DNA of 64,000 nucleotides from a virus (IMGVR_UViG_3300007351_000003:4022-68021), one strand, 5' to 3'; counted from the stretch's first letter, positions 46,853 through 63,488 are shown. Numbers and translations are program-made. Notes: a model not told the origin generated them from the sequence alone.

Positions 46853-47269
46853 TTATTTTTCTTTTGCCATCTGCATGAGTCGCGCAGCTACAACGACCTC
46901 ATCAACTTGGTATCGTTTCGCAAAAAATGACACAACATCCGGTCGATCCTTGTATTTTTCCCAGTCGGGAAGAAACAGGCTATCCGGCATCAGTAAGTGC
47001 AGCGCAAATTCATTCGCTTCTTTCTCGTCTCGATCTTCTAGTATCGTGGTCATATTTACCCTTGTTATCGTGTCTTGCGCTCGCTTATTCCATAGCCCAA
47101 TCGCGCCTCTGCGTGATTTCTTCGGATAAGTACGAACTAGGCATTTTAGGCATTCGATCTGCCACCATTTATGATTGACCATCGTGCTTTCATAGTTATC
47201 AACCCGCGCTTTACCGCCGCAGAATGGACACGATAACAAAACGGTCGAATCAGATTTCGCTTTGCTCAA
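46853..47269 (-). CDS. Lar-family zinc finger fused to an ImmA/IrrE-like C-terminal fragment
   Basis: CPFCGG...CLKC...AIGLWNKR, then EKEANEFALHLLMP. Confidence 0.7.
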   Translation of the reverse strand: MSKAKSDSTVLLSCPFCGGKARVDNYESTMVNHKWWQIECLKCLVRTYPKKSRRGAIGLWNKRAQDTITRVNMTTILEDRDEKEANEFALHLLMPDSLFLPDWEKYKDRPDVVSFFAKRYQVDEVVVAARLMQMAKEK

Positions 47270-47290
47270 CTGTTCACCTCCACGTTGGTG
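47231..47290. repeat. attC-like site
   Basis: CGATAAC...GGT[C]GAA/TTCACC...GTTGGTG, 60 bp. Confidence 0.8.
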
Positions 47291-47310
47291 CGGCGCTTCG
47301 CGCCGGAAAC

Positions 47311-47456
47311 CTTTTACGTCTGGGCGGGCTGGTAGGGACTTTCGGTTCTGCCACCATCACCCGACGATCGGGAGTCCTCCCGGCGAAGGGATTCTCATCC
47401 ACGGTACGGTATCGTTTTAGCGACAGCCGCCGCCAGTTCCCGCCCAGACGTAAAAG
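47311..47456 (-). ncRNA. 146-nt structured RNA candidate, copy 1 (strand assumed from operon direction)
   Basis: 18-bp closing stem and internal hairpins; 139/146 identical to 63489-63634. Confidence 0.65.
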
Positions 47457-47539
47457 CTTTTTATATTAAGCGCCGCACCAATGGGGCCGTTAAGTCGTGA
47501 CCGGCAAGCATTGGTTGATGCGTCGCACACTACGCGCCG

Positions 47540-47604
47540 CACCAACCAAGCCGTTCAAGACCGACCGCCCCTAACGGGGCGGCGACTTAACGGCCCCATT
47601 AAAT
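47540..47604. repeat. attC-like site (ATT variant)
   Basis: GCACCAAC...GTT[C]AAG/CTTAAC...ATTAAAT. Confidence 0.8.
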
Positions 47605-48045
47605 TTCTTCATGCCTCACGAAGACGGCGGTTGATAGTTCCAACCTCCGCAAAACTGAGACAAGCATCACTACTTCGGCGCTCTTGTTCGCAGCGGTATA
47701 CGTTGCCTCTTTTGCCGTTCGCACTTGTTTATCGTATAACTCAAGCAAGCCCCACGAGTCAGGCAATTCATCGGGCTTGACGAGTTTCGCGGGAACTAGA
47801 AAATAACGGTGATCCCCCATACCGCGCTCTTGTTCCCGGCGAAATATTTTATTCTTATCCGAGAGAAAATCTGCTCTCGATGCCTTGCACTCCACAAGGA
47901 TGCTAGCTCCACCAGAAGCATAGAAGCCTATCGCGTCTGGAGTTTCGGTGTTGTGTGTAGTGGCAAGTTCGGCCAAAATGATTGTGCAACGCCGATTATT
48001 TGCAAGCCATGCCTGAGCTTTTTTGACCAACTCTTTATGAGTCAA
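47599..48045 (-). CDS. PD-(D/E)XK nuclease-like (MmcB-related) cassette gene
   Basis: ETPDAIGF...LVECKASRADF. Confidence 0.7.
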   Translation of the reverse strand: MTHKELVKKAQAWLANNRRCTIILAELATTHNTETPDAIGFYASGGASILVECKASRADFLSDKNKIFRREQERGMGDHRYFLVPAKLVKPDELPDSWGLLELYDKQVRTAKEATYTAANKSAEVVMLVSVLRRLELSTAVFVRHEEI

Positions 48046-48058
48046 ACCGACCTCTGAA

Positions 48059-48115
48059 ATTTAACCAGTCAGTCCAGCCGTCCAAAAAGGACGGCAGCTG
48101 ACTTCTGCGTTATGG
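48059..48115. repeat. attC-like site
   Basis: ATTTAAC...AGT[C]CAG/CTGACT...GTTATGG, 57 bp. Confidence 0.8.
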
Positions 48116-48322
48116 TTCCAACCTCTTCATGAATTCTGCATTGCCATCCTCATGGCACCTGCTGCAGATATATCTTTTTGTCTTGATCGTCTTGTATGCC
48201 CTCGGTGCCTTATCTCGTGGCGGGTATGTGGTGCGGTTATCTGTATTGAATGCCTCTATGCCGAGGAATATCAATCCAAGAGTGAGAGCGATGCTGACTA
48301 TTGTGAGTCCGGGATTGGCCAT
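48110..48322 (-). CDS. Small membrane-anchored protein
   Basis: N-terminal TM, CSRCH; stop lies in the attC TAAC. Confidence 0.55.
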   Translation of the reverse strand: MANPGLTIVSIALTLGLIFLGIEAFNTDNRTTYPPRDKAPRAYKTIKTKRYICSRCHEDGNAEFMKRLEP

Positions 48323-48325
48323 GTT

Positions 48326-48475
48326 CTAATCTCCACTGTCGTCGGTCTGGTTTATGTCTTTCGGAGTAACCGCCATTTGTATCCTGTGCAATGCGCTGTA
48401 TACCGCTTCCCGGTTCTTCGGGTCGTTGTAGTTCTCAATTGCAAAATCAATATCTTTCTTTATCGTTTCGATCAT
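48326..48475 (-). CDS. Small hypothetical protein (49 aa, not in ORF track)
   Basis: Hand translation MIETIKKDIDFAIENY... Confidence 0.45.
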   Translation of the reverse strand: MIETIKKDIDFAIENYNDPKNREAVYSALHRIQMAVTPKDINQTDDSGD

Positions 48476-48614
48476 TCGTCACCACCTTGGTTAAGTTTGC
48501 AGGGCGACCCCGGACCAGGAGCCGCCCTGCATATGTAAAGGAGGTCCACTCCCCATGAGTGGCAAAAGAAACCCTGCCAGTAAGGAGAACCAGAAACCCG
48601 GCAGGGCAAATCAT

Positions 48615-48833
48615 TTATTCGTCTCCGTCTTGAGTGGGGTAAAGTATGTCATACGGTTTAAATGTTGCCTCGTGGATCGCCCTCGCTACTTCAACTCGCA
48701 TACGCTCGTAGGCCCTGATACGAATTTCTTTCGGGAGGCTGTCGAATTGTTTTTTTACGTCCGGGTGGACACGAAAGGAAACTGGGGGGCCTGTTTTTTC
48801 ATACTGCTGCAGATCGTCGCAATCTTTAGCCAT
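48615..48833 (-). CDS. Small regulator in cII position (ribbon-helix-helix-like)
   Basis: PVSFRVHPDVKKQF; AAAGGA SD; follows cro. Confidence 0.55.
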   Translation of the reverse strand: MAKDCDDLQQYEKTGPPVSFRVHPDVKKQFDSLPKEIRIRAYERMRVEVARAIHEATFKPYDILYPTQDGDE

Positions 48834-48900
48834 ATGTGTCATTCCTTTCGTAAATAGTGAACCAATGTAGACAGTGACAAAGAAAAAAATATATGTATAC

Positions 48901-49122
48901 TCAGGACGCTTTCCCCATGCGCTTGCCGAGTGACGGATTTTCAGCGAGGTGATATTTTCGAAAACCTTTTCGCTTGCTGAGAAAATAAATCGGTTTTTTA
49001 CCGGCGAAGATGGCAAGGTCGATCGCAAGGGGGATGATGGTAGTTTTTTTATCCCCCCGCAGGAGTGGGGTTAGGAAGCTCGGCTCGACGCCGTGCTTAT
49101 TGGCAATCTCAATCTTTTTCAT
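48901..49122 (-). CDS. cro: Cro-like HTH protein
   Basis: EIANKHGVEPSFLTPLLRG; divergent from repressor. Confidence 0.75.
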   Translation of the reverse strand: MKKIEIANKHGVEPSFLTPLLRGDKKTTIIPLAIDLAIFAGKKPIYFLSKRKGFRKYHLAENPSLGKRMGKAS

Positions 49123-49130
49123 TAGGCTTA

Positions 49131-49209
49131 ATTGTACTTTAGTACAAGTTAAAAGTCAACATAAAATTGTACTATAGTTTATTGACGTAGCTTTGAGGAT
49201 GCATATAAT
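49131..49209. promoter_or_regulatory. OR region: PR (minus), PRM (plus) and two operators
   Basis: PR TTGACT-N17-TACAAT (49159 to 49131); PRM TTGACG-N16-TATAAT (49182-49209); operators 49132-49147 and 49167-49182. Confidence 0.85.
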
Positions 49210-49215
49210 GAATGG

Positions 49216-49506
49216 ATGGAGAACTCCATGAAGGTTTTAGGGCGGCATATAAGAGCTTTGCGTAAATCCAGAGGATTAAAGGCAAAAGACATTGCAGAAC
49301 GTGCCAATTTGACACCTACTTATATAAGCAGGGTAGAAAACGGGAGAGTTGATGGCGTTTCGGTCGAGGTAATCATGAGGATCGCCCAAGCCATGTCTGT
49401 ACCCACGGCAGCTTTGTTTAAAGACGATGAGATCGTGGAAGAATTAATAAAACATGCGGAACTAATGAAGAAATTTTTTAAGGAAGAAGGCAAAAAAGAC
49501 AAATAA
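49216..49506 (+). CDS. XRE-family HTH repressor (cI position, no peptidase domain)
   Basis: IRALRKSRGL..KDIAERANLTPTYISRVENG. Confidence 0.85.
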   Translation: MENSMKVLGRHIRALRKSRGLKAKDIAERANLTPTYISRVENGRVDGVSVEVIMRIAQAMSVPTAALFKDDEIVEELIKHAELMKKFFKEEGKKDK

Positions 49507-49542
49507 TACCCTGAAAATACCCTGAAAGTATTAGATATGAGG

Positions 49543-49571
49543 TTGACAAATAATCCTTTCTTATGTTTAAT
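49543..49571 (+). promoter_or_regulatory. Sigma70-type promoter for a small lysogeny-region gene
   Basis: TTGACA-N17-TTTAAT with extended TG. Confidence 0.55.
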
Positions 49572-49600
49572 TGGCTTATTAAATCAAGGAGGATTAAGGA

Positions 49601-49777
49601 ATGAAAAAAGAAGAACCCTGCAACAATCTGAGGAACAACCTGTGCAAGCGATGCAGATCCAGCCGTATTGTTGTGGTGCCACGGGCCGCATTTGTGAAAT
49701 ATCTGAAACAAGGAAACGCCCTGCTATCGAAGTCGTTTTGCCCTCCCAACTCCATCCATAAACTACCGAAACAATAA
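49601..49777 (+). CDS. Small Cys-containing protein (58 aa, not in ORF track)
   Basis: MKKEEPCNNLRNNLCKRC...; AAGGAGG SD; own promoter and terminator. Confidence 0.5.
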   Translation: MKKEEPCNNLRNNLCKRCRSSRIVVVPRAAFVKYLKQGNALLSKSFCPPNSIHKLPKQ

Positions 49778-49798
49778 AAAATAATAATACTTTGACTT

Positions 49799-49826
49799 AA
49801 AAAAGGCACCCTTGGGTGCCTTTTTT
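49799..49826. terminator. Bidirectional Rho-independent terminator
   Basis: A6-GGCACC-CTTG-GGTGCC-T6. Confidence 0.85.
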
Positions 49827-49842
49827 ATTGTCCGAAAAATAA

Positions 49843-49895
49843 TTGTACTATAGATATATTTTTTACTTGCATTGTTAGTTGTACTATGGTACAAT
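49843..49895 (+). promoter_or_regulatory. OL region: PL and two operators
   Basis: TTGCAT-N17-TACAAT (49867-49895); operators 49843-49858 and 49879-49894. Confidence 0.8.
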
Positions 49896-50060
49896 TCAAC
49901 CATGCTTAATTTGCTGCGTTAGTTTCACCCTCTGCCCCTTCTTACGAAGCAGGGCGTGAGGGTTCTAATAGCAACATGGTACATCCACCAGCATCGGGAT
50001 GGTTTCAAAGGCGGATTACAATCGGCCAAAGGTAATTGAGCTTCTTACCGCACCGCAGTA

Positions 50061-50262
50061 CCAGTAGGTAGTTCTTGGAGGGGGTTGAGCTACGGAGGGC
50101 CAAACCGGTAGCGCAAATCGAAAACGACACAGTGCGTACCCTGATCCCGGGGTCTGAAGCGCACGAGAGATACAGGAAGGGGCCGCTTGCTGGTCGTCGA
50201 AGCAACGCGTTGGTCTGCAGGCAACAGACACTCTTCCTGCCTCGCCAAGAACTACTTACTGG
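50061..50262 (+). ncRNA. Structured RNA candidate in the PL leader
   Basis: 17/18-bp closing stem 50061-50078/50245-50262 enclosing several hairpins. Confidence 0.45.
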
Positions 50263-50326
50263 ACACCACGAGCGCAGCACCAGCGATTTTAAGAATCGCG
50301 CCATTCTCCAAGAAAGGAGGGGCACT

Positions 50327-50560
50327 GTGAGCGCATTAGCGGAAACACTCAGCAAAGCCAGAACGCGCCGTAAGTTGTCGATGAACGACGTATCCAGGCA
50401 GTCCAGCATCGCCAAAGATCACCGCGGCAGGATCACTCAGGGCTACATCTCCCGCCTTGAGTCTGGCAAAGAAACAAACCCATCATTCCTGAAACTGCAG
50501 ACGCTGTGCAATATTTACCGGATCAATCCGGGGACACTCTTTAAGCAAACGGTGAGATAG
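50327..50560 (+). CDS. XRE-family HTH protein
   Basis: GTG start with AAGGAGG SD; ITQGYISRLESG..NPSF. Confidence 0.8.
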   Translation: MSALAETLSKARTRRKLSMNDVSRQSSIAKDHRGRITQGYISRLESGKETNPSFLKLQTLCNIYRINPGTLFKQTVR

Positions 50561-50634
50561 ACTTGTACGGCGCAAGAGCGGACTGTAAATCCGATCCGAA
50601 AGGCCAGGAGGTTCGATTCCTTCTCTCACCACCA
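50551..50634 (+). tRNA. tRNA-Tyr(GTA) with encoded CCA and atypical D-arm
   Basis: GGTGAGA/TCTCACC acceptor stem, A73-CCA, CT-GTA-AA loop, GGTTCGATTCC T-arm, long variable arm. Confidence 0.8.
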
Positions 50635-50651
50635 TCACGCTCGATCATGAT

Positions 50652-50667
50652 AGTTCCACGTGAAACA
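50652..50667. promoter_or_regulatory. parS: parS-like ParB loading site
   Basis: AGTTCCACGTGAAACA, 15/16 to TGTTCCACGTGAAACA. Confidence 0.7.
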
Positions 50668-50767
50668 TCGGTGCAAAATCCTCAACCGGAGGTGATTGCC
50701 CTATGAAGTAGGAAAAACACTTATTTTATCACTGTTCCTTATTGAGAGTACCAAAAGCAAAGTTTTA

Positions 50768-50779
50768 CGTTCTTTCACA
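50768..50779 (+). promoter_or_regulatory. boxA-like element
   Basis: CGTTCTTTCACA in the PL leader. Confidence 0.4.
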
Positions 50780-51017
50780 TCAAGATCCACATCCAGAATT
50801 ACATCAAGTTAAAAAGGGCGGGCAGAGCCTCTTGCACCCGTGAGATAGGGTTCAGCTCCAATAAAACTTCGCGGCTTTCAGATACTCTGAGCCGCACACT
50901 AATCGAGCGATGGGGAGAAATAAAAAATTACCCGACGCAAAGCTCTGCCGCCCTCACCTACGAGCATCCTATATCGGAATCATATTTTTATTTTATTCAA
51001 CGTCGAAAGGTGAACCC

Positions 51018-51209
51018 ATGTCAGAATCAAAATATGAGTCATTTTCGTCAATCAGCGAACTGAAGCCGGGAATGATCGTTCGCGGAAAGTCAACCGGACA
51101 AACGTTTATGGTCCTCGTAAGCTTTGGGGACCGCGTGACTGCCGTAAGCACGGCAGACATAACGAATCCCGATGAGTGGGAAGTTTTAAAAAAAATAACG
51201 CCAAGCTGA
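51018..51209 (+). CDS. Small hypothetical protein
   Basis: 63 aa from MSESKY, AAAGGTG SD; LKPGMIVR SH3-like. Confidence 0.55.
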   Translation: MSESKYESFSSISELKPGMIVRGKSTGQTFMVLVSFGDRVTAVSTADITNPDEWEVLKKITPS

Positions 51210-51434
51210 CCCGCAGCCGAGGAGGAGAAGCATGAGCATGTGTCGAATACCAGACTGTGGATATTATTTCAAGGGATGCTGTAAAAAGAAAGATGGAACT
51301 ATTTGCACTGCTCAGGCTTCGCCGTCTCGAACGAGTGGTTCTCCGACCGCGTCGCGGTCGGACTCGGTCGAGGCGGCTGCCTCTCAACTCGCCGCCATTC
51401 CAGCGGTCACAATCGAAAGTTGAGGAGCGAGTCT

Positions 51435-51599
51435 ATGCAAAAACTTACAGTAAAGGAACTCAGAGACGCACTGCAAAAGGCAGACGATAATGCAGATATC
51501 ATTATTCATACTGCCAAAGAGATTTCGACAGCGAGGCAAGTAGTGATAGGCAGAGAACCGTTCATCATGATAATCGCAAGCGACGAAACTTGTCCTTAG
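51435..51599 (+). CDS. Small hypothetical protein
   Basis: MQKLTVKELRDAL, GAGGAG SD. Confidence 0.55.
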   Translation: MQKLTVKELRDALQKADDNADIIIHTAKEISTARQVVIGREPFIMIIASDETCP

Positions 51600-51668
51600 A
51601 AGCGTGACCGCTGGAATGCTTGCGTAACTCGCAGGCGTAGCCAGTCGAAGTTGACGCGATTGTTACGA
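51594..51668. repeat. Degenerate attC-like site
   Basis: Imperfect hairpin ending TTGACGCGATT-GTT; left AAC lost. Confidence 0.45.
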
Positions 51669-51702
51669 TTGTTATGATTGCGTCTAAAGGTGGTAATTGA
51701 AA

Positions 51703-51840
51703 ATGGACGAAAAAGTTTACGATCTTTCATTAGAAGATATCAGACCATTGATTGACCTACCTGCCGAATATGAATTGGTTCGCGCAGATAGCAACGGAAA
51801 CGGAACAGGCGTGATTGTCAAACTGGTCAAGCGATCATAA
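51703..51840 (+). CDS. 45-aa cassette-like ORF (not in ORF track)
   Basis: MDEKVYDLSLEDIRPL...; flanks GTTATGATT / GATCATAAT pair. Confidence 0.5.
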   Translation: MDEKVYDLSLEDIRPLIDLPAEYELVRADSNGNGTGVIVKLVKRS

Positions 51841-51894
51841 TGCGGCGGTAAGCCTCGGCACGCGAAGCGACGGGTTCGACCCGTTTGGTTAAGA
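51835..51894. repeat. Degenerate attC-like site
   Basis: TCATAAT-GCGGCGGTAAGCCTCGGC...GTTAAGA; left arm resembles 62609. Confidence 0.55.
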
Positions 51895-51915
51895 CTTTTT
51901 GGAGGGCTGATATAT

Positions 51916-52224
51916 ATGCCAAGAAAATTATCTGAACCCGTTATGCGATACGCGAATGCCATGCAATTGAAATTGAACAAAAACGCGCACAAAGGCGGCT
52001 GGATTCGCTATGACAATCGGGGCCGACGAATATGGGCTCCTGAAGACGTGCGTTTTTTGCTCAACAAACTTAAAGAAGAGCACGACGAACTGATTGCAGA
52101 GGTGGAAAAGTATTTGTCTAATCCATGCATGTATCAAGGGAACAATCTGCTGAAAGAAGCTGCGGATAATGGAAATATTTCGATGATGCTTGCGGATGTA
52201 TGTAGGCAATTGAAAAAAGTATAA
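51916..52224 (+). CDS. MazG-like nucleotide pyrophosphatase-fold protein
   Basis: KLKEEHDEL...EAADNGNISMML; stop in TAAC. Confidence 0.55.
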   Translation: MPRKLSEPVMRYANAMQLKLNKNAHKGGWIRYDNRGRRIWAPEDVRFLLNKLKEEHDELIAEVEKYLSNPCMYQGNNLLKEAADNGNISMMLADVCRQLKKV

Positions 52225-52276
52225 CGCGCCGGATGAACGGCGCAGCGGAAGCGGAATGTCGGTCCGCTGGTTGAAA
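52219..52276. repeat. Degenerate attC-like site
   Basis: GTATAAC...CTG-GTTGAAA, 58 bp. Confidence 0.5.
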
Positions 52277-52299
52277 ACGGCGATATCAGGAGGCCCACC

Positions 52300-52548
52300 A
52301 TGAAGAAACAGAAATTGCTCTGCGGAAAGTGCAAAACGGAACTGGACGAAAGCATGCTCTGCTCGGTAACTGATACTGTCGGCGAGGTTTACCGGGAAAG
52401 AAAGGCTTTGTGCTGCAATAATCCAGATTGCTCGGCACCGATCCATGTAATTTCTATGACCGAGGGGCCGATTGAGAAACCCAAAACGTTTTTTGGCCGC
52501 TCCTGGCTCCTCGCTCCTATTGGCCGGCTGCTCATGGGGAGGACATAG
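52300..52548 (+). CDS. Zinc-finger hypothetical protein
   Basis: CGKC...CCNNPDC; AGGAGG SD. Confidence 0.55.
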   Translation: MKKQKLLCGKCKTELDESMLCSVTDTVGEVYRERKALCCNNPDCSAPIHVISMTEGPIEKPKTFFGRSWLLAPIGRLLMGRT

Positions 52549-52660
52549 TCATGGAGATAACCTATTGCTCCTGGATTCGCGTGATCGAACAGGCACAGCG
52601 GGAAGCCCCTGTCTGGCTGGAAGAAGCATTCGCTCGGATCAAGCAGAAAGAAGTTGCGTA

Positions 52661-52858
52661 ATGACCGAAACCGCACCCATACACAACTTGGCCGACGCCC
52701 TGCCATATCTGCAGGAACTGATGAAAGTCACCTGCACCTGTCAGCACAAGCACACAAATCCGAAATATCATAAAGCCGGGTGCCCCTACCCGGAAGAAGC
52801 ATATAAACTTTGTCCAATGTTGAAGGAGACCACCGATGAACCCGAACGCAACAGTTGA
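52661..52858 (+). CDS. Small hypothetical protein
   Basis: TAATG-coupled MTETAPIH... Confidence 0.45.
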   Translation: MTETAPIHNLADALPYLQELMKVTCTCQHKHTNPKYHKAGCPYPEEAYKLCPMLKETTDEPERNS

Positions 52859-53008
52859 TCAGCAGTGCAGCAATGCCCATGGAACCAATACCTGTGGAGC
52901 TGGCTGGAAGCAGTGCCCCTGCCCTCAGTCGATCGACCACATCAAAAAGGTACGGCGCCGGGGAGATCCCGGGCCCCTGCCGCCGAGAGAAGAAAGCGAG
53001 GAATACCG

Positions 53009-54988: not shown

Positions 54989-55233
54989 CACAGAACAACG
55001 ATACCAAAATCCCTTTGATGCAGGAAGTCGAATCCAGCAACATTGCCTCCATCGGACACGATGAGGAAGAAAACGCACTGCACGTTCAGTTTAAGAACGG
55101 CGGGCACTATGTCTATTCCGGCATCGCGCGTGATGCATTCAATGAAATCCTAAAGGCCAAAAGCGTGGGCGGCTATATCCACAAGCACGTGAAAGGCCAG
55201 TGTGCCTGCAGGAAGATCGAGATCAAGAAATAG
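54985..55233 (+). CDS. KTSC-domain protein
   Basis: VESSNIASIGHD...LHVQFKNGGHYVY...AKSVGGY. Confidence 0.88.
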   Translation: MTQNNDTKIPLMQEVESSNIASIGHDEEENALHVQFKNGGHYVYSGIARDAFNEILKAKSVGGYIHKHVKGQCACRKIEIKK

Positions 55234-55259
55234 GAAGATAGTAAATAGAAAGGCGAAAC

Positions 55260-55565
55260 ATGAAAACAGTATCGATTTGCAAAGCTCAGGGTATTCCACG
55301 GGTGAACAGCATCGAACCCGTGACAATAGTGATTGAACGGGAATTCCCGGAGTACAAGGCCCTGAGCCAATCTGCCGAGCATTTTGAAAAGGATGCAGAT
55401 GCCCTTGTGGGCGCCATCTTAACCACTCTACCGGGTGGGACGATTGACAGATTGATATGCAAACTTCTTCAGAAGAAGGCGTCACTTTTCGTTGTACCGT
55501 TATTTAATGAAAAAAAACCAGACGAAGGAGGCATCACCCATGGCAACACAGACAGCAACAGATAA
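55260..55565 (+). CDS. Hypothetical protein
   Basis: 101 aa; LPGGTIDRL motif. Confidence 0.55.
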   Translation: MKTVSICKAQGIPRVNSIEPVTIVIEREFPEYKALSQSAEHFEKDADALVGAILTTLPGGTIDRLICKLLQKKASLFVVPLFNEKKPDEGGITHGNTDSNR

Positions 55566-56538
55566 GGCCCCGGCAAAGCCCGGGAACGTACCGGCAACAC
55601 AAAAGGCAGCAGCCCCGACAATTTCGGGCACATCCAAGAGCATCACCGATATGGTTGAGTCCAGCATCAGCCAGATGGTCATGGCCGGGAAACTCGTTCT
55701 CCCTCCCGATTACGCAGTGGCGAACGCCCTCAAATCGGCCTACCTGATGCTCCAGACGGTGGAAAATCGGGATCACAAGAAGGCCCTTGAGGTTTGCACC
55801 AGGGAGAGCGTGGCAAACGCTCTACTGGATATGGTGGTGCAGGGCCTGAACGTCGGCAAGGACCAGGGATATTTTATCGTCTTCGGCAACCAACTGGTGT
55901 TTATGCGCTCTTACATGGGCGCCATGGCCGTCGTAAAGATGGTCAACCCGGCCGTTAAGGACTTCGCCTTTGCCGTGGTATATGAGGGAGACGTGTTTAA
56001 ATACTCCCTCAAGAACGGTCAAAAAACCGTCGTGCAGCACGAGCAGGAACTGGCAAATATCGACAAGGCCAATATTCTCGCGGCCTATGCCATCGCCCTA
56101 GACAAAGACAACAACCCGATCAGGACCGAGATTTCCACGATCGACGAGATCCATCAGGCATGGAAGCAGTCCAGAAACAACCCGTTTGATGATAAGGGCG
56201 ATGTTAAGGAATCGAGCACGCACGGCAAATTCGCGTCAGACATGGCCCAAAAAACCGTGATCAATAAACTGTGCAAGTTCATTATCAACTCATCATCCGA
56301 CAACACCCTGCTGAAAGAAACAGTCAACAAGACGTATGAAGTCGTGGATGCCGCCGCGGTAAAGGCGGAAATCAGCGATGCGGCAAACGCTGGTCCGGTG
56401 CTGGAAATCCCCGCGGAGACCATCACCGAGACTGCCCAGGCAGCCGAGCAGTCAACCCAGCCCGAGAAGTCCCCGCCGCCGGCAGGAGACGGGCAGCTTC
56501 CGCTTACGGGAGCAACGGCAAGGAAACCGGGATTTTAA
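55540..56538 (+). CDS. recT: RecT-family single-strand annealing protein
   Basis: PPDYAVANAL, SVANALLDMVVQGL, YFIVFGNQL..RSYMG, MAQKTVI. Confidence 0.9.
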   Translation: MATQTATDKAPAKPGNVPATQKAAAPTISGTSKSITDMVESSISQMVMAGKLVLPPDYAVANALKSAYLMLQTVENRDHKKALEVCTRESVANALLDMVVQGLNVGKDQGYFIVFGNQLVFMRSYMGAMAVVKMVNPAVKDFAFAVVYEGDVFKYSLKNGQKTVVQHEQELANIDKANILAAYAIALDKDNNPIRTEISTIDEIHQAWKQSRNNPFDDKGDVKESSTHGKFASDMAQKTVINKLCKFIINSSSDNTLLKETVNKTYEVVDAAAVKAEISDAANAGPVLEIPAETITETAQAAEQSTQPEKSPPPAGDGQLPLTGATARKPGF

Positions 56539-56633
56539 ACCTTCGGCGAAGGGCTGCCTGACAGAAATGCAGGACAGCAGCCGATCACTCCCGGTACCGG
56601 TGTAATCCGGACCGGGAGTTTAATAAAAAAATT

Positions 56634-57206
56634 ATGAATGAAATTTGGAAAGACATACCTGAGTTTGAAGGTGTTTATCAAATCTCAAATCATGGTAGAT
56701 TGAAAAAACTAAAATGCGAAAGAAGACCGCATTCCTATCCTCGGATTGTATCGGTTAAAAACGGGAATGGGTGGTATCTCACGATTATTTTGCAGTTCGA
56801 AGGGAAAAAGAAAACTGCGAGAATACACCGTCTTGTGGCAGAGGCATTCATTCCTAATCCAGAAAATAAGCTAGAGGTAAACCACAAAGATACGAATAAA
56901 CAAAACAACCACTGGAGCAATTTAGAGTGGGTCAGCCGAAAAGAAAATCATGCTCATGCGGTCAAGAATACAGATATCGTAAAGGGCATGAATCATTACA
57001 ACAAGTTTGTCAGGCCAAATATCATAGTGCAAGTTTCTCCTGAAGGAGATGTAATTAAAGAATTCCCAAACGCATGCGAAGCTGCGCGAACTACAGGCGT
57101 ATGTAACAGAAATATTCTCCAAGTTGCTCATAAGACGCAATATAAGCCTGGGAAAATCAGGAAGCAAGCGGGTGGTTTTATCTGGAGGTTTAAGGATGCA
57201 GTTTGA
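56634..57206 (+). CDS. NUMOD4-HNH homing endonuclease
   Basis: EIWKDIPEFEGVYQISNHGR; IHRLVAEAFI; VNHKDTNKQNN..SNLEW. Confidence 0.9.
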   Translation: MNEIWKDIPEFEGVYQISNHGRLKKLKCERRPHSYPRIVSVKNGNGWYLTIILQFEGKKKTARIHRLVAEAFIPNPENKLEVNHKDTNKQNNHWSNLEWVSRKENHAHAVKNTDIVKGMNHYNKFVRPNIIVQVSPEGDVIKEFPNACEAARTTGVCNRNILQVAHKTQYKPGKIRKQAGGFIWRFKDAV

Positions 57207-57901
57207 GTCATTGGCGTCATCCAGTAAAGGAAATGCTTATATCGTTACAGCGGAAGGGGCAGCGCCGTTGCTCATCGAAGCAGGTATGCCAATCCGCACT
57301 TTGAGAGAACGCCTAGGTTTTGGCGTTACGGGTCTCGCGGGGTGCCTTGTATCCCACGAGCATCTTTGACCACGCCAAAGGCGTCAAGGACTTGCTTAAA
57401 GCAGGCGTAGACTGCTGGATGAGCGCAGGGACCGCCGAGGCACTTGGAGTATTCGGCCATCACCGGCATTGCCTGCTTTTGCCTGACGATACTGCGACAC
57501 TAGGAAATGGATGGACGGTAAAGCCTTTTGATCTACAACACGACGCCTCAGAGCCGCTCGGCTTCCTCATAGGCCACAAAGATGAAAGGCTTCTGTTCGT
57601 TCCAGATACCGCATACGTCGAGAACCGCTTCGCAGGTGTCACCCTGGCCGCGATCGAATGTAACCACGTGGAGTCCATCCTGTCGCAGAATATCGTAAGC
57701 GGCCGGGTGGATCCTTCTCTCGGGAAGCGGATACGCAGGAATCACATGAGCCTGGAAACCGCAATCGCCATGCTCAAAGCCAATGATCTGAGCAAGTGCC
57801 GGAAGATTTTTTTGCTTCATCTCTCAGACGCTAACTCGGATGAGCAGCGCATGAAACTTGAGATCCAGCAGGCCACAGGAATACCGACTGAAATATGCTG
57901 A
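57196..57901 (+). CDS. MBL-fold exonuclease requiring a +1 frameshift at 57364-57370 (or a pseudogene)
   Basis: LASSSKGN...SHEHL in one frame, DHAKG...HDA...DT...IECNH...LLHLS in the +1 frame; junction CTT TGA C. Confidence 0.85.
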
Positions 57902-58146
57902 AACTTGAATTCAACAAACCATCCATTAATTGTATGTATTTCCGGGAGAAACTTTCCGGGGTTGGGGAGAATGTCTGCATCCATAAATTCGATACTTGTA
58001 CACCAGTAGACTGTGAAGATAAGGCGCCATATCCTGCAGCGGAAGATATCCGACAAGAAAATTGGAAGCGCAACTACGAAGAATGCCCAAGCATGGACTG
58101 TGAGCTATGCGAGGATAGAGAAATCTGTGAAGGAAGTGAAGTGTAG
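57895..58146 (+). CDS. Cys-rich hypothetical protein
   Basis: 83 aa overlapping the upstream stop. Confidence 0.45.
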   Translation: MLKLEFNKPSINCMYFREKLSGVGENVCIHKFDTCTPVDCEDKAPYPAAEDIRQENWKRNYEECPSMDCELCEDREICEGSEV

Positions 58147-58223
58147 AGCAGCCCGCACCACGCGGGCAGAGAACGCCAAGCTGACCCGCAGCCGAGGAGA
58201 AGCTATCGGAAAGGAGAAATATC

Positions 58224-58625
58224 ATGGGCATGCCTGACAGAACGGTTGATCCGAACGGAATTGAAGAAGACGACGCATATATGACCATCTTCGAAGAGGC
58301 ACGCAAGGAGAAAATGGCCGATATGGACGTATGGGTTGCCTGGAAGATGGGTCTTGCAGCATATCAGCAGGCGCGGAAACTCGACGTGAAGTTTCCACAC
58401 GACACACCGGAACCGATTGATACCCCGGACCACATGACCATCGCGGATATGAAAGTTGAAGTTGCCGACTACGAACCGCATTATAACATGATTGATGCCG
58501 AAACCATCCGCGAATCATCATGTCCGGCTTGCAAGGGCCCGCTTATGTACCGTGGATTCAAGCATGGTGACTCATACCGTGCGTTTGCCGTATGCAAGAA
58601 ATGCAATCGAGCGGACGAATTTTAA
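58224..58625 (+). CDS. Hypothetical protein with C-terminal zinc ribbon
   Basis: CPACKG...CKKC; AAAGGAG SD after an attC half-site. Confidence 0.6.
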   Translation: MGMPDRTVDPNGIEEDDAYMTIFEEARKEKMADMDVWVAWKMGLAAYQQARKLDVKFPHDTPEPIDTPDHMTIADMKVEVADYEPHYNMIDAETIRESSCPACKGPLMYRGFKHGDSYRAFAVCKKCNRADEF

Positions 58626-58771
58626 AGCGTCCAACGCGGTCGATAGGATAGATGGCGCTGAAATCGTACTGGAAAATAAAATAGCCCAGGCAATCCCCGG
58701 CCCGGACGGGAAGTCAAGATGGACTGCCAACCCTTATGTATGGAGCATTTACTTTAAGAGAATACCTAACC

Positions 58772-59113
58772 ATGACACATTTTGAAGACGGACCCGCAAA
58801 AGGGGAAACCCTGATGCTGAAACGTTCTCCCATCTTTCTCCGTGTGGTAGAAGTTAACGGACAATGGGACGCTCTTGATCAGTTGGATGACGAACCAGCC
58901 CCCCATGAGAAGATATACGCCTATGAACGCATAGGCGAGCCCGGCATGGTGCATATCAATGCAGGGCGTAAGGGCAACAGTGGGTGGTATCCGATGGCAG
59001 CTTACCGGTTCATAACTGATCAACCAACCGATTCTGCAATGCTCGACAGCGAAGCCTGGCGGCAGTGGTGCCGGAATAGAGTAAAACCGAAATCTACAGA
59101 GGTCTTAAAATAA
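58772..59113 (+). CDS. Conserved phage hypothetical protein
   Basis: FEDGPAKG...WDALDQLDDEP motif. Confidence 0.6.
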   Translation: MTHFEDGPAKGETLMLKRSPIFLRVVEVNGQWDALDQLDDEPAPHEKIYAYERIGEPGMVHINAGRKGNSGWYPMAAYRFITDQPTDSAMLDSEAWRQWCRNRVKPKSTEVLK

Positions 59114-59574
59114 TGGTCATCCTTGCCTTTCTGCAAAACATGTGGGTTCGGGAGCCCGAGAAGGTCCGGGCTTGGCTGGACAAGAATCCGCATCTCTGGA
59201 ACCGTGCCGTAACCGGCTTTTTGTTCTCGGGCTGTCTGACCGGCCGGAGGATTAAAGCCTGCTTCGGTGACCTGGTCGAGAAGATGACATTCGAGGAATG
59301 TACAAGGGAGATCGCCGGCGATTCCCGAACCATCTGCCCACCGAACACCGCACACATCGAGGCTTGTATCGAGAAGTACAAACCGACGGTTGTGGTCACG
59401 TTCGGGAGGATCGCAGCTGAGGCGGTACGACCGATCTGGCATGCCTGGTCCACATTGACGCCTGAATATTTTATCGCATTGCCTCACCCAGCAGCCAGGC
59501 AGGTCGACACGATCAGCAAACTGAAGTCTGCAGCCAATAAGATCAGGAGGCTCTGTGGAAACTACATCAGTTAG
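59113..59574 (+). CDS. Uracil-DNA glycosylase-like superfamily protein
   Basis: PTVVVTFGRIA and IALPHPAAR motifs. Confidence 0.6.
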   Translation: MVILAFLQNMWVREPEKVRAWLDKNPHLWNRAVTGFLFSGCLTGRRIKACFGDLVEKMTFEECTREIAGDSRTICPPNTAHIEACIEKYKPTVVVTFGRIAAEAVRPIWHAWSTLTPEYFIALPHPAARQVDTISKLKSAANKIRRLCGNYIS

Positions 59575-59734
59575 CGGCGAAATCAAAAAAGAAACCGACC
59601 TCGCCATACTGTTCTTTGACGGGGAAAAGGAAGTCTGGATACCGAAATCACAGATCGAATCCCGGGTGAATTACAGCGATAGCGTGGAGATTGAGATTCC
59701 GGCCTGGTTAGCAGAAGAAAAGGAGTTGGTATGA
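59555..59734 (+). CDS. Small conserved phage protein (59 aa, not in ORF track)
   Basis: GTG with AGGAGG SD; WIPKSQI...IPAWLAEEKEL. Confidence 0.6.
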   Translation: METTSVSGEIKKETDLAILFFDGEKEVWIPKSQIESRVNYSDSVEIEIPAWLAEEKELV

Positions 59735-60129
59735 GCGACGTTATTAGAGACATTACAGATTACTCCATGAGCGAAGACTATGAACTGCTTTGGGACTTGG
59801 CACAAAAGCAGTCAGTCGTGTGCGAGGTGGACTATGATTCCAGAAACAATGATCCATCCAAACCTATCCGGGACATAGCAGCCACTCGATCTCACAAGCA
59901 TCGTGATGAAATAGTGGTCGAGGTTGAAGTCAGAGGGTACGGGTATATCTATGCCACTGATAAAGAAGATTTCCTGATGCAGTGCCGGAGATCGCGGCTG
60001 AAGTTCATATTGCCCCACATCAGAAAAAAAGAGAGATGCATACACTACTCGTGCAGACTGTGCTTATTGGGCAGTGGTATATGCTCAGGATGCGAGGGCT
60101 GTAAAGAATATGAACCTGACGGGTTGTAA
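59731..60129 (+). CDS. Hypothetical protein
   Basis: 132 aa, ATGA-coupled. Confidence 0.55.
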   Translation: MSDVIRDITDYSMSEDYELLWDLAQKQSVVCEVDYDSRNNDPSKPIRDIAATRSHKHRDEIVVEVEVRGYGYIYATDKEDFLMQCRRSRLKFILPHIRKKERCIHYSCRLCLLGSGICSGCEGCKEYEPDGL

Positions 60130-60132
60130 TTA

Positions 60133-60402
60133 ATGGCCGCCTTCTCCAAAGATGGCTGGGTTAACCGCTTCTGGCACTGTGACGGTTGCGGGAAAGAAGG
60201 ATCATGGGAAGAAGGCTGGTCATGGTACGGGTCAATCTTACATCTCGACACATGCCCGAACGATGTCCCGGTTGCCTGTTCAGATGCTTGCGCGAAGATC
60301 GTTCAGGAGAGGATCGACAGCGGCCAGTACGTTTTACCGAAACCGAAGCTGAGGAATAAGAAATACTACTCGGCAGTGGTGACGAAGAGAAAGGGGTACT
60401 GA
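60133..60402 (+). CDS. Zinc-binding hypothetical protein
   Basis: CDGCG...W...ACSDAC. Confidence 0.55.
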   Translation: MAAFSKDGWVNRFWHCDGCGKEGSWEEGWSWYGSILHLDTCPNDVPVACSDACAKIVQERIDSGQYVLPKPKLRNKKYYSAVVTKRKGY

Positions 60403-60591
60403 ATGAGCGAAGAACTTAATCCAATCCCCTGCCCGTCATGCGGCGAAGATCTGGTAAAAAAAGATGACCATCACGGAGACTGGTGGGCTCACAAGAATGA
60501 TCTGTCAAGCTGCATTTTTTCATTCATTCAATTGATGGATCAATCTGATGTTAAACGGTGGAATATTCGACCGACTATCCCCGGGCTCTAA
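60403..60591 (+). CDS. Lar-like zinc ribbon protein
   Basis: PCPSCG...KRWNIR. Confidence 0.55.
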   Translation: MSEELNPIPCPSCGEDLVKKDDHHGDWWAHKNDLSSCIFSFIQLMDQSDVKRWNIRPTIPGL

Positions 60592-60821
60592 GTAACCCAC
60601 ATCCCAGAACACGATGGGGCCACAGGATTCACCCGGGGGCTCACGCTGGCCGAAGGTATGGAGTTGCTGCCGAAGTTGGTTGAATACATCCTTACCGCCG
60701 AGGGGATGCAGTGTATAAGCGGACTGTCTGTCAATCTAGTGCTTACCCTGCCCTGCGGGGATCGCGTAGAGGTCCAGAAAGATGATATTGCAGAAAGTAC
60801 CAAGAGATAAGAGGAGTCATT

Positions 60822-61073
60822 ATGAGTAACGAGCAGCCGCAAAAAGTAGTGAATACTCTCCCGGCCGAGGGCCTTTGTCGACTCAGGCAGATCATAGGAT
60901 ACAGGGATAAAGATTCTGGTGAATGGGTGCCAGGCTTCCTTGCTATCAAAAAAAGTGCATGGTATCGGGGGATCATAGAAGGCAAATACCCGAAGCCTGC
61001 AAAGAAGTTTGGCACTCGCTGCACTTTATGGGATGTTGATGATATCAGGAAGCTGAAAGAAAAGGCATCGTAA
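60822..61073 (+). CDS. alpA: AlpA-family excisionase/regulator
   Basis: LCRLRQII...IKKSAWYRGI.EGKYPKP.KFG.RCTLW. Confidence 0.85.
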   Translation: MSNEQPQKVVNTLPAEGLCRLRQIIGYRDKDSGEWVPGFLAIKKSAWYRGIIEGKYPKPAKKFGTRCTLWDVDDIRKLKEKAS

Positions 61074-61126
61074 TGCGATACTGACCCCTGCTACTTTAGC
61101 GTGGGTGTCGAGCACTCTGGTTAGTT
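61068..61126. repeat. attC-like site (AAT variant)
   Basis: CT-GAC-CCC pairs with GGG-[T]-GTC-[G]-AG; ends GTTAGTT. Confidence 0.75.
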
Positions 61127-61148
61127 TTCCAGAGTGCGGAAAGGCAGC

Positions 61149-61391
61149 ATGATAAAGATTACAGACAGACGGTCAATTTTAAAACAGGTCATCAGCGGGA
61201 TTTGCTGGTCTCCGGTGGCTCTCATCGGCTTATTTATTGCTGCGCTCGTGGGCCTGATGGCATACGGTATTACAATTACCATTCTTGGCGGCGGGCTGCT
61301 TAAAGTCATTATTGGATTAGCGAAGTCTGCCGGTATTATGGCCGTGGTTTTCGGATACATCATTGCATTTATATGGTCGAACCAAAACTAA
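61149..61391 (+). CDS. Cassette gene: two-TM membrane protein
   Basis: Hydrophobic 80 aa; stop in TAAC. Confidence 0.65.
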   Translation: MIKITDRRSILKQVISGICWSPVALIGLFIAALVGLMAYGITITILGGGLLKVIIGLAKSAGIMAVVFGYIIAFIWSNQN

Positions 61392-61489
61392 CGCGAGCAT
61401 GAGCCGCGTACACATTGGAGGGCAAATGAAGCATTTTATTAAAACCACAACGGAGCAGATCGGGCGACGGCTCGATGCTCTGGTTAGAA
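61386..61489. repeat. Long attC-like site (104 bp)
   Basis: GAGCAT-GAGCCG pairs with CGGCTC-[G]-ATGCTC; ends GTTAGAA. Confidence 0.85.
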
Positions 61490-61614
61490 TTTGTCATGTT
61501 CATTGGCATTCTAAGTTTGCGAGATCGTGGATATGTCACTCATACCCATGCTATTATCCTGTTTCTGATTATCGCTGCCGATGTGGGCACATTAAGACAT
61601 ATCGCACAAATTGA
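61426..61614 (+). CDS. Cassette ORF initiating inside the attC loop (62 aa, Cys/His-rich)
   Basis: GGAGGG SD and ATG within the attC variable loop. Confidence 0.45.
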   Translation: MKHFIKTTTEQIGRRLDALVRICHVHWHSKFARSWICHSYPCYYPVSDYRCRCGHIKTYRTN

Positions 61615-61677
61615 TTTTAACGCGGCGCTGACCTGCCGCAGCGAAGCGGAGGCCAGTGTCGAGCGTCCTGGTTAGAA
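61615..61677. repeat. attC-like site
   Basis: GCT-GAC-CTG pairs with CAG-[T]-GTC-[G]-AGC. Confidence 0.85.
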
Positions 61678-62304: not shown

Positions 62305-62306
62305 AA

Positions 62307-62365
62307 TTCCAACGCTTGCGTCAACCGCGAGCGAAGCGTAGACGGTTTGGACGCAATTGTTATGC
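62307..62365. repeat. attC-like site (59 bp)
   Basis: TTGCGT-C-AACCG pairs with CGGTT-[T]-G-[G]-ACGCAA. Confidence 0.85.
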
Positions 62366-62387
62366 GCCATCACGGAAAAGGAGAACA

Positions 62388-63405: not shown

Positions 63406-63488
63406 CGGCGCGTAGCTTGCGCCGTGCCAACCGATTAGAGACTTCAGCGGCTCAAGGCCCCCATTGGTGCGGCGCTTAATATAAAAAG

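Follow-up and report, generated by a model that had tools for sequence, protein, structure and literature searches.

Integron-type attC sites between the early genes of an integrase-less phage probably supply stop codons and, at a minority of junctions, start signals

An uncultured phage of 83 kb carries attC-type hairpins between its small early genes. We analyzed a window of 64,000 nucleotides from this phage, and positions are those of the window unless another contig is named. The hairpins are probably integron-type attC sites in integrase-less arrays of both early arms, in which the TAA of the 5' box is used as a stop codon, starts are conventional in about two thirds of cassettes, and attC sequence has been co-opted in the rest. 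In this model, the gene-sense strand would be the attC bottom strand, and cassettes would be tightly packed, each ORF filling the space from a GTT box to the next AAC box. The T-A-A of the 5' box (YTAAC or YTAAT) would act as a stop when in frame, and the cassette's terminal inverted repeat (8-13 nt) would encode the last codons of a gene. Most cassettes would then start from a Shine-Dalgarno sequence (SD) and start codon in the spacer that follows GTT, while the remaining third would draw in various ways on attC-derived sequence. The GTTRRRY box, rich in purines, may serve as SD, a truncated attC may be the SD source (51197), and in the Lar cassettes a remodelled 5' arm or loop may hold both SD and start, leading to translation of the 3' arm. 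Where an SD is absent and the start lies 6-10 nt past GTT, as at 61681, expression is probably dependent on ribosomes arriving from the upstream ORF. The analysis shows what the sites are, their strand bias, the excess of stops in the box and where SDs and starts lie; the starts in use, translational coupling and the travel of an attC with its downstream ORF are inferred.

By their sequence, the phage hairpins are real attC-type sites. Every site has the inverted repeat of attC, with terminal triplets AAC...GTT within RYYYAAC and GTTRRRY boxes, and the phage consensus reads YTAACGCG...TGACC ... GTCGA...CTGGTTAR. An extrahelical G (GTC[G]A opposite TGAC) is present in the sense-strand 3' arm of all sites detected by weight matrix and gives the site its polarity; with this matrix, sense-strand scores run from 18 to 35 bits at 14/14 sites, and antisense scores stay under 6 bits. 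The confident sites are all on the gene-sense strand, and the bottom-strand form occupies that strand at all sites in both arms and in contigs L083 and L086. One genome holds 16 full or large sites and two truncated ones, all co-oriented with transcription in the bottom-strand sense. In pairwise alignment of site 62305-62366 to the aadA1 attC of plasmid R100, the bottom strand reached z=13.1 and the top strand 3.5, a preference for the bottom strand also seen in three other sites. An nhmmer profile built from seven phage sites matched, across a search space of 1.39 Mb, its own seven sites and the aadA1 attC (E=0.014, bottom strand), the sole foreign match.

The sites are also linked as cassette boundaries would be. 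In both main arrays (the plus arm and 47-48 kb), the right flank of a site is the reverse complement of the next site's left flank at 8-12 of 13 positions, and in L083 adjacent sites agree at a mean of 4.5 of 10 positions vs 3.0 for non-adjacent ones; a cluster at 31-33 kb does not obey this flank rule (3-4 of 13 positions). A search with TIGR02249 found no integron integrase or other tyrosine recombinase in the phage. At least two attC sites lie within a few kb with no integron integrase nearby, the arrangement that defines a CALIN, and at no site does an ORF lie on the attC top-strand side with the attC 3' of it, as it would in a canonical cassette. Because the phage is without an integrase, we infer recombination activity only from mosaicism, and mobility only from near-identical cores in unrelated phages. 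The attC cores match sites in L086, a contig with unrelated genes, at 94-98% identity, and a 207-aa gene has 80 relatives, none of which shares any neighbor with this phage.

The sites whose box TAA ends the upstream gene include the following.

51839-51890, plus strand: attC-like site; box CATAAT is the stop of gene 51703-51840; matrix 28.6 bits sense, -5.8 antisense
52223-52272, plus strand: attC-like site; box TATAAC is the stop of gene 51916-52224; SD AGGAGG and ATG 52300 downstream of the hairpin
61072-61122, plus strand: attC-like site; box CGTAAT is the stop of gene 60822-61073
61390-61485, plus strand: attC-like site of 96 nt; box ACTAAC is the stop of gene 61149-61391; as RNA, a hairpin of -33.5 kcal/mol with z -2.6
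63349-63465, plus strand: large hairpin site; box GCTAAC is the stop of gene 63036-63350
48063-48111, minus strand: attC-like site; box CATAAC is the stop of gene 48110-48322; SD AGAGG and TTG 48045 downstream
47480-47600, minus strand: large hairpin site; box TTTAAT is the stop of gene 47599-48045

A sequence-only reading of the window had placed ten stop codons in such boxes, and all ten are indeed ORF ends at which the sense strand reads TAA followed by C or T. Eight of them (47599, 48110, 51838, 52222, 61071, 61389, 63348 and 63962) fall in the 5' box of an attC-like hairpin. At 30737 the box is backed by a remnant only (TAACGCTTAGTTGG), and at 46853 the hairpin is absent; it may be the solo box of a lost attC, as the L088 version of this gene leads into a complete site. 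For sites with TAA in the box, we scored whether an ORF of 40 codons or more ended in frame on that TAA, against a random-frame null of 1/3. This held for 9/12 TAA-bearing sites in this phage (p=0.004), for 19/23 weight-matrix sites across five contigs (p=1.7e-6), and for 23/29 when hand-curated sites were added (p=5e-7), so the box TAA is in frame far above chance. A gene in an integron array has GTTRRRY before it and RYYYAAC after it, on either strand. As this geometry is the same in normal integrons, the inverted orientation, to which the earlier reading had attributed the translational role of the sites, is unnecessary for it. The stop-in-attC habit is supported, but it was already known from integron cassettes, does not depend on inversion, and is the rule in most resistance cassettes (PMC11511950).

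The window also holds the following sites.

62311-62361, plus strand: attC-like site, alignable to the bottom strand of the aadA1 attC; box CCAAC without TAA
62613-62726, plus strand: large hairpin site of 114 nt (AAT...ATT); upstream stop 9 nt before the box, out of frame with the box TAA
62950-62998, plus strand: divergent attC-like site; SD AAAGGA and ATG 63036 downstream
63659-63708, plus strand: attC-like site; SD GGAGGGG from 6 nt after GTT; ATG 63725
31343-32692, minus strand: second cluster, in the minus arm, with three sites (32647-32692, 31950-31998 and 31343-31390)

At 62311-62361 the upstream stop lies 9 nt before the site, and an SD (AAGGAG) with GTG 62388 follows it. The cargo after site 63349-63465 is a 216-nt repeat and not an ORF. 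ATG 63725 is a better start than ATG 63668 inside site 63659-63708 (SD -10.0 vs -7.4). In the minus-arm cluster, an SD and start follow the GTT in 3/3 sites, and only the first holds the upstream stop.

We tallied SD and start positions at 34 junctions, where starts are predictions from SD strength, frame and gene calls. At 23 of these, an ordinary SD and start lie wholly downstream of the GTT box, 12-52 nt after GTT and outside the hairpin; site 51839-51890, for instance, is followed by SD GGAGGG and ATG 51916 at 10-25 nt past GTT. Four junctions have an SD overlapping GTTRRRY, three are without SD, three have the start inside the site (Lar cassettes), and one further junction is ambiguous. 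Start signals derived from attC are therefore true for a minority of junctions, limited to the Lar cassettes, the truncated site 51197 and the four sites with an SD over GTTRRRY. The spacer that carries SD and start is not conserved between copies of one attC type: cores of the H and P types, which recur in L086 or within this phage, diverge directly after GTT.

These counts bear on a broader proposal from the earlier reading, in which an inverted attC stands upstream of its own ORF and was selected as a portable SD, start and leader module through which promoterless cassettes are expressed at any place of insertion. As a general rule we consider this unlikely, since 23/34 junctions start outside the site, in sequence that same-type copies do not share, and since normal integrons have the same geometry. 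The sequence observations of the earlier reading are all confirmed, and its interpretation has partial support. The four GTTRRRY boxes that double as SD are consistent with it, and its best support is the block formed by attC 61072-61122 and the sequence that follows.

61123-61151, plus strand: leader after the GTT box, with SD GGAAAGG and ATG 61149

This attC and its 25-nt leader are conserved ahead of three unrelated ORFs (in this phage, L083 and L085), from the AAC box to the start codon, and all three copies end in AAACTAAC. For one attC type at least, such conservation suggests that passive compaction is not the whole explanation.

The Lar cassettes offer a second case.

47235-47286, minus strand: degenerate attC-like junction of Lar; 5' arm GGAGGTGAAC is the SD; TTG 47269 in the loop
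47064-47074, minus strand: solo box GACACGATAAC, inverted repeat of GTTATCGTGTC at 47227-47237

As first read, the sense strand at the 47231 site is GGAGGTGAACAG-TTG, in which the SD forms an anti-SD duplex of -10.6 kcal/mol and the TTG opens a 138-codon Lar-like ORF. Residues SDSTVLLS of the Lar-like protein are encoded by the 3' arm and the GTTATCG box. This site, weak by itself (leave-one-out matrix 15 bits, not significant, with ~21 pairs matching it in shuffled genomes; RNA fold z -0.45), obeys the flank rule on either side. A 93% identical copy of the 55-nt Lar site, with SD and TTG, precedes a diverged Lar body in L083/L085. In L082, a Lar body 86% identical to ours sits behind a different, bona fide attC of 112 nt, whose loop holds an SD and an ATG that is in frame with that body. 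In-frame starts inside two different attC cores favor the portable module, but the L082 arrangement argues against it, as attC and ORF do not always travel together. At 47064-47074 a 4-nt length difference shifts the box TAA out of frame, and the Lar and M78-like genes are consequently fused into the one 138-codon ORF.

A truncated attC appears to supply an SD in a third case.

51197-51227, plus strand: truncated attC of which the left half is present; GAGGAGGAG serves as SD of ATG 51232
58172-58202, plus strand: second copy of the truncated left half; candidate SD AAAGGAG outside the repeat

The two copies have 31 nt in common at 97% identity, and the full-length form of the 51197 type is found in L087 (5336-5393). 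The upstream gene 51018-51209 has its TGA stop inside the truncated attC. That an attC left half leads into an SD and ORF, as had been proposed for both copies, holds at 51197; at 58172, AAAGGAG, 7 nt before the ATG and downstream of the repeat, is the more likely SD for gene 58224-58625.

The example most prominent in the sequence-only reading, an ORF starting in the loop of site 61390-61485, fares less well, and this also counts against the portable module.

61426-61614, plus strand: ORF of the earlier reading, 62 aa, doubtful; reads GRRLDALVR over the 3' arm
61496-61675, plus strand: rival ORF, 59 aa, membrane-like; without SD; starts 10 nt after GTT
61619-61673, plus strand: attC-like site, matched at 98% identity by one in L086, an unrelated phage contig

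The loop does contain GGAGGG-CAA-ATG at 61417-61428, and the frame through RRLDALVR is present. The ORF itself is unsupported: a homologue search gave none, its codon log-likelihood is -6.9 overall, and its codons in the cassette body resemble an off-frame reading (-4.36 per codon vs -4.01±0.10 for coding and -4.43±0.20 for off-frame sequence), with the rival frame scoring -4.17 there. The source's gene call, a 66-aa product matching ORF 61475-61675, is in that same rival frame. ORF 61496-61675 runs on through the attC behind it and ends with the TAG of GGTTAG; 5 nt later comes ATG 61681, which follows site 61619-61673 and GTTAGAATTT without an SD.

Such junctions raise a second possibility, that the hairpins act mainly as punctuation of a polycistronic early mRNA, in its processing, its stability or termination-reinitiation over the hairpin base, with stops and starts placed for translational coupling and the likeness to attC being historical. 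The SD-less junctions L083 14227 and 14543, where the stop occupies the 5' foot and 6-10 nt separate the 3' foot from the start, would fit this, as would 61681, although there the upstream stop is not in the box. ORF 61496-61675 and L083 ORF 7191-7352 each cross a site and stop in GTTAG or GTTAA, an alternative 9-bp hairpin (61112-61137) competes with the attC 3' arm just ahead of the leader SD, and the transcribed strand carries all sites. We nevertheless hold this to be quite improbable, given the homology to aadA1 attC including the extrahelical G, the flank rule and the near-identical cores in unrelated phages; moreover, the sites are not terminator-like, the region has no promoter excess, and several RNA folds show no gain in stability over shuffles. 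Least credible, and very improbable in our view, is that in-attC starts are gene-calling artefacts, with SD-like strings arising by chance in G-rich arms and real starts downstream (Lar TTG 47239, in frame; nothing or ORF 61496 after 61390): in typical members of the Lar family, no more than 3-5 residues precede the position aligning to our residue 11, a short N-terminus that TTG 47239 would give, the Lar site is not significant in leave-one-out scoring, the 61426 codons are off-frame, and full 61619-type sites have GGAGG in the apex without a usable start, but the SDs are strong (-10.1 to -12.5 kcal/mol), correctly spaced, in frame and stop-free at two unrelated Lar upstream sites, and the downstream TTG has no SD before it.

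Read as integron-type attC arrays, the phage sites can be set beside known systems. They share with integron attC (59-base elements of the aadA1 or Xanthomonadales type) the AAC...GTT boxes, a spacer that stays unpaired, the extrahelical G of the L box and a GCGAAGC-type apex, and they measure 40-117 nt. Each unit holds a single ORF, the outer flanks of the boxes are complementary in a cassette-specific manner, and in most cassettes, as in integrons (PMC11511950), the site overlaps the stop codon; there is also direct sequence similarity to aadA1 attC. Unlike integrons, the phage has its ORFs on the bottom-strand side in every cassette, lacks an integrase and attI, and arranges its arrays in two divergent early operons, with RNA-like or truncated cargo in several units. 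Phage CALINs, attC clusters without intI, have been described, virulent phages included, and some of their sites recombined with attI1 via IntI1 (PMC9892861). Those reported have 2-4 sites, compared with 16 and two truncated here, and translation is not discussed there (PMC9892861).

About 20% of integron cassettes are without their own initiation signals, and hairpins are relieved by short ORFs within attC (PMC8876359). ORF-11, ORF-17 and ORF-18 of attI1 and short in-attC ORFs (Hanau-Bercot 2002; Jacquier 2009; reviewed in PMC8876359) likewise join a recombination site to an SD and start, and the stop of ORF-11 is the TAG of GTTRRRY (PMC8876359). Their coupling serves cassettes without signals of their own, and its geometry is that of ORF 61496-61675, GGTTAG and the SD-less ATG 61681; the phage ORF differs in having no own SD, no homologue and only intermediate codon usage. 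The attI1 ORFs are short peptides (11, 17 or 18 aa) that only deliver ribosomes, whereas in the Lar cassettes attC-encoded residues are the predicted N-terminus of the cargo protein. The promoter-early stem-loop (PeSL) cassettes of T4-type phages (PMC2839356, PMC4122927) also have conserved intergenic stem-loops on either side of small variable early genes; they move from phage to phage and are a source of expression signals. Each PeSL has its promoter and terminator and recombines through homology, whereas the phage sites are homologous to integron attC, and no terminator tails were found in them. Lastly, in fused integron cassettes, partial or total attC loss joins neighbors and the downstream gene uses upstream signals (PMC4670013). 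The Lar-M78 fusion at 47064-47074 and the truncated sites 51197 and 58172 resemble these, except that here they occur in a phage, in inverted orientation, with fusion through a small length difference.

The window covers bases 4022-68021 of an 83,217-bp IMG/VR phage record that is estimated to be 93% complete. Its genes are minus-strand up to ~48.6 kb and plus-strand from ~49.2 kb, and in both arms short imperfect hairpins separate the small genes. We conclude that these hairpins are integrase-less attC arrays with their genes on the bottom-strand side. When aligned pairwise with the aadA1 attC taken from plasmid R100, site 62305-62366 scored z=13.1 on the bottom strand and z=3.5 on the top strand, and the sites at 61613, 51836 and 52217 also preferred the bottom strand (z of 4.6, 6.9 and 3.6 versus ~0). 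An nhmmer profile built from seven phage sites only, searched against 1.39 Mb made up of the genome, 80 unrelated phage loci and 50 kb of R100, recovered its own seven sites and the aadA1 attC, on the bottom strand (E=0.014), with no further significant match in that target. Common to the sites are the left-hand consensus YTAACGCG...TGACC and the right-hand consensus GTCGA...CTGGTTAR, and where the attC L box has an extrahelical base the phage sites likewise have the extrahelical G of GTCGA opposite TGAC. Half-site weight matrices gave 14/14 sites 18-35 bits on the gene-sense strand and less than 6 bits on the opposite strand. Within both main arrays, 8-12 of 13 positions in each site's right flank are reverse-complementary to the left flank of the site that follows; complementary flanks of consecutive sites are the classical signature of integron cassettes. 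A TIGR02249 search of the phage was negative for integron integrases and other tyrosine recombinases. CALINs in phages have already been published (PMC9892861). A role for the sites as intrinsic terminators or promoter modules was rejected, as they are not terminator-like and promoters are not enriched. The matrices and nhmmer were used instead of energy-based and arm-alignment scans for AAC...GTT hairpins, which were unspecific, with real and shuffled counts only about two-fold apart. RNAalifold on a MAFFT alignment of the sites returned no structure because the bulged arms are out of register in the alignment, and blastn of one site against plasmids gave chance matches only.

The usual description of an integron cassette is a promoterless gene followed by its recombination site, and its translation after landing is an active question. 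The phage arrays are similarly economical, the recombination box containing the stop codon, though their gene orientation is the opposite one, and a few phage cassettes have turned the site into part of the coding or initiation region. The observation behind the sequence-only reading is confirmed, while its interpretation, that the inverted attC is a portable translation-initiation module supplying stops, Shine-Dalgarno sequences (SDs) and starts, is partly supported. If attC does travel with the downstream gene, a cassette would bring its own translation start wherever it integrates; this would matter for the way phages put together and express their accessory early genes, among them those for anti-restriction proteins (Lar), nucleases and methylase partners.

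All ten stops proposed for the window are ORF ends with a TAA whose next base is C or T. The 5' box of a site (the AAC side, YTAAC/YTAAT) holds eight of them; the one at 30737 lies in a remnant and the one at 46853 has no hairpin. Across the TAA-bearing boxes of five contigs, and relative to a random frame, the box TAA terminates, in frame, an ORF of 40 codons or more at 19/23 matrix-detected sites (p=1.7e-6), or 23/29 with hand-curated sites added (p=5e-7); this phage alone gives 9/12 (p=0.004). The last 2-4 codons are fixed as well, because the box flank belongs to the cassette's terminal inverted repeat, as in AAG TTA AGC GGC TAA C opposite GTTAGCCGCTT. The stop in the box is real, non-random and strong, yet it was already known for integron cassettes: most resistance cassettes have a stop codon that their attC overlaps (PMC11511950). 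It is also independent of inversion, since an array ORF precedes RYYYAAC on either strand. Two gene calls enter or traverse an attC, L083 7191-7352 and L088 179-400 (L numbers denote other viral contigs compared). The stop is the TAA of a 3'-box GTTAA in one and a TAG within the GCGTAGCG loop in the other, the TAA of the AAC-side box being skipped when absent (AAAAAC) or out of frame.

Gene starts are more varied. At 34 junctions (a site with the gene end before it and the gene start after it), we listed all starts with an ORF of at least 35 codons together with their anti-SD duplex energy. The classes are as follows.

Best SD and start entirely 3' of GTT, starts at +12 to +52, 23/34 junctions; for example 51916, 52300, 61149, 62388, 62777, 63036, 63725, 48045 and three sites at 31-33 kb
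SD overlapping the purine-rich GTTRRRY box, 4/34 junctions; 67897 (window coordinate, just beyond the window), L083 10926 (GTTGGAGG), L083 11881 and L086 2888
No SD, start 6-10 nt past GTT, 3/34 junctions; ATG 61681, L083 14284 and L083 14600
Start within the site, 3/34 junctions, every one a Lar cassette; one more (site 61390) is ambiguous

In roughly two thirds of cassettes the predicted initiation signals are outside the site, which counts against a general initiation module. For a minority, initiation derived from attC is credible; these are the Lar cassettes, one leader-bearing type, the truncated sites and the SDs that overlap GTTRRRY. About 20% of integron cassettes have been reported to carry no initiation signals, a share to which we rate the SD-less junctions here as close (PMC8876359). 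ATG 63668, inside site 63659-63708, was considered as the start of the last gene and rejected, because ATG 63725 has a stronger SD and a better coding score. For annotation of such arrays, the TAAC/TAAT box can anchor gene ends, but the hairpin cannot be assumed to hold starts.

The Lar cassette is one for which a start inside attC is credible. As the sequence-only reading had described, the sense strand of 47286-47235 reads AAC-GT-GGAGGTGAAC-AG-TTG..., placing an SD in the 5' arm and a TTG in the loop, and the 3' arm and GTTATCG box would encode SDSTVLLS; the start itself is predicted and carries caveats. The same 55 nt recur at 93% identity in L083, L084 and L085 with SD and TTG kept, preceded there by a Dam gene versus RNA-like cargo in this phage, and 3' of them the Lar body diverges directly after CPFCG. 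In L082, a Lar body 86% identical to that of the phage lies behind a different, 112-nt site that scored 23.8 bits without having been used in training and whose loop holds GGGGG-N5-ATG in frame with Lar. Because two unrelated upstream sites each offer a strong, in-frame, stop-free start, we argue from these sequences that the Lar cassette probably initiates inside attC. An alternative is the in-frame TTG at 47239, which would give a typical short Lar N-terminus. The phage's Lar site is also a weak member of the family, with a leave-one-out score of 15 bits versus ~21 chance pairs and an RNA fold z of -0.45.

The Lar-like and Peptidase_M78-like domains form a single 138-codon ORF here (46853-47269, minus strand) and are separate genes elsewhere. 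L082 has Lar alone, with its stop in GACACGATAAC, and L088 has the M78-like gene alone, with its own SD and an ATG at residue M73 of the phage ORF. At the junction, 47064-47074, which holds no attC hairpin between the two halves, a 4-nt length difference relative to L082 puts the box TAA out of frame. A 216-nt repeat, 93% identical, occurs once per arm on the transcribed strand (47282-47497 and 63448-63663); it is cassette cargo without an ORF and without an Rfam match, nor did Rfam match anything else within the window.

The leader-bearing type is the strongest candidate for a site that travels with what follows it. Site 61072-61122 and the following 25 nt, including the SD GGAAAGG, are conserved in the phage, L083 and L085 (alignment A4), where they precede three unrelated ORFs (80-aa and 52-aa membrane-like, 91-aa Cys-rich), all with the ending AAACTAAC. 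Conservation runs from the AAC box and, beyond the site, past GTT on the 3' side only, and so fits a unit of attC, leader and ORF. The linkage is not general, since other attC types diverge immediately past GTT and the Lar body has a different upstream site in L082. We put forward only tentatively, as a rather unlikely reading, that the inverted attC is the 5' end of a mobile unit consisting of attC, leader, SD, ORF and TAA box, self-punctuating with its own start and stop, in which the hairpin would bring the upstream stop next to the start. Such a unit would account both for the single attC-plus-leader block that stands before three unrelated ORFs and for the start of some cargo proteins inside the site. 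At 61112-61137, a 9-bp hairpin (GCACTCTGG / CCAGAGTGC) pairs the attC 3' arm with the leader just 5' of the SD, with the GTTAG box in its loop. It is kept in L083 (10247-10271) with one G-U pair and in L085 with one mismatch, and might rival the attC fold in the mRNA.

Identical 27-nt attC left halves had been said to lead into SDs and ORFs at two places. The repeat is real (51197-51227 and 58172-58202, 97% identical over 31 nt), neither copy has a right half, and the full-length form in L087 (5336-5393) identifies both as truncated attC sites, similar to the truncated attC of fused integron cassettes (PMC4670013). At 51197, GAGGAGGAG, which comes from attC, serves as the SD for a predicted start, ATG 51232; at 58172, the SD is likely AAAGGAG further downstream, outside the repeat. 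ORF 51232-51423 is doubtful as a gene (codon score -2.5), its sole match being an 81-nt block near-identical as DNA in L087. This block, with internal palindromes, lies at 51319-51399 and L087 5118-5198 within otherwise different ORFs, and a partial copy occurs in the minus arm at 32139-32170. In L087, an AACGGGGGCGAGTTGAGA ~200 nt upstream is a perfect pairing partner for the end of the block (TCTCAACTCGCCCCCGTT); possibly the block represents attC-like sites of a second family, very long and enclosing a start codon. A short GC hairpin followed by AGAGAAC, 5' of the attC box, occurs in both arms (58147-58171, and 31999-32023 on the minus strand) and in L087 (5320-5337), and looks like a conserved 5'-side extension of one attC type.

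Site 61390-61485 offers competing frames. Its loop does contain GGAGGG-CAA-ATG, and the 62-codon frame from ATG 61426 reads GRRLDALVR and meets a TGA just 5' of the next box. The frame from ATG 61496 (MFIGILSL...), which the record's own gene call also uses, scores -4.17 per codon, and the 61426 frame scores -4.36 per codon in the cassette body; reference values in this phage are -4.01±0.10 for coding frames and -4.43±0.20 for off-frames. The 61496 ORF has no SD and no homologue besides that gene call; it traverses site 61619-61673 and ends at the TAG of GGTTAG, 5 nt 5' of the SD-less ATG 61681. This geometry matches ORF-11 of attI1 and short intra-attC ORFs, for which a role in opening the hairpin to the benefit of downstream cassettes has been proposed (PMC8876359). 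We lean slightly towards the 61496 frame as the coding one. That neither frame is coding is less probable, though a serious alternative. Translation from 61426, as first proposed, appears improbable, given its off-frame-like codons and no homologue among 5.8 billion proteins.

Near-identical sites in otherwise unrelated phages suggest that the units are mobile. A 207-aa protein without a Pfam family (61681-62304) has at least 130 viral-contig relatives, nearly always within tightly overlapping operons without hairpins; an attC-like hairpin follows the relative in L005 only. None of 80 such relatives (55-75% identity) has any neighboring gene in common with the phage. No close relative of the phage came up in searches through its 707-aa and 133-aa proteins, megablast with the 50.9-64 kb segment matched no phage record, and an exact-pattern search of viral contigs for the arms of site 61390 found none. 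Sites of this family, without exception on the sense strand, also form arrays in L083 (14 sites), L082, L085, L087 and L088. A family-pattern search among viral contigs matched one other contig, L086, a 90-kb phage contig (IMGVR_UViG_3300037484_000296) with unrelated genes, which carries a site 98% identical to 61618-61673 and sites 94-98% identical to 48062-48104. Four same-family sites lie at 1762-2941 of L086, directly 3' of a divergent promoter region, and two of the four are repeats of one core type, that of 48062-48104 (94-98% identical).
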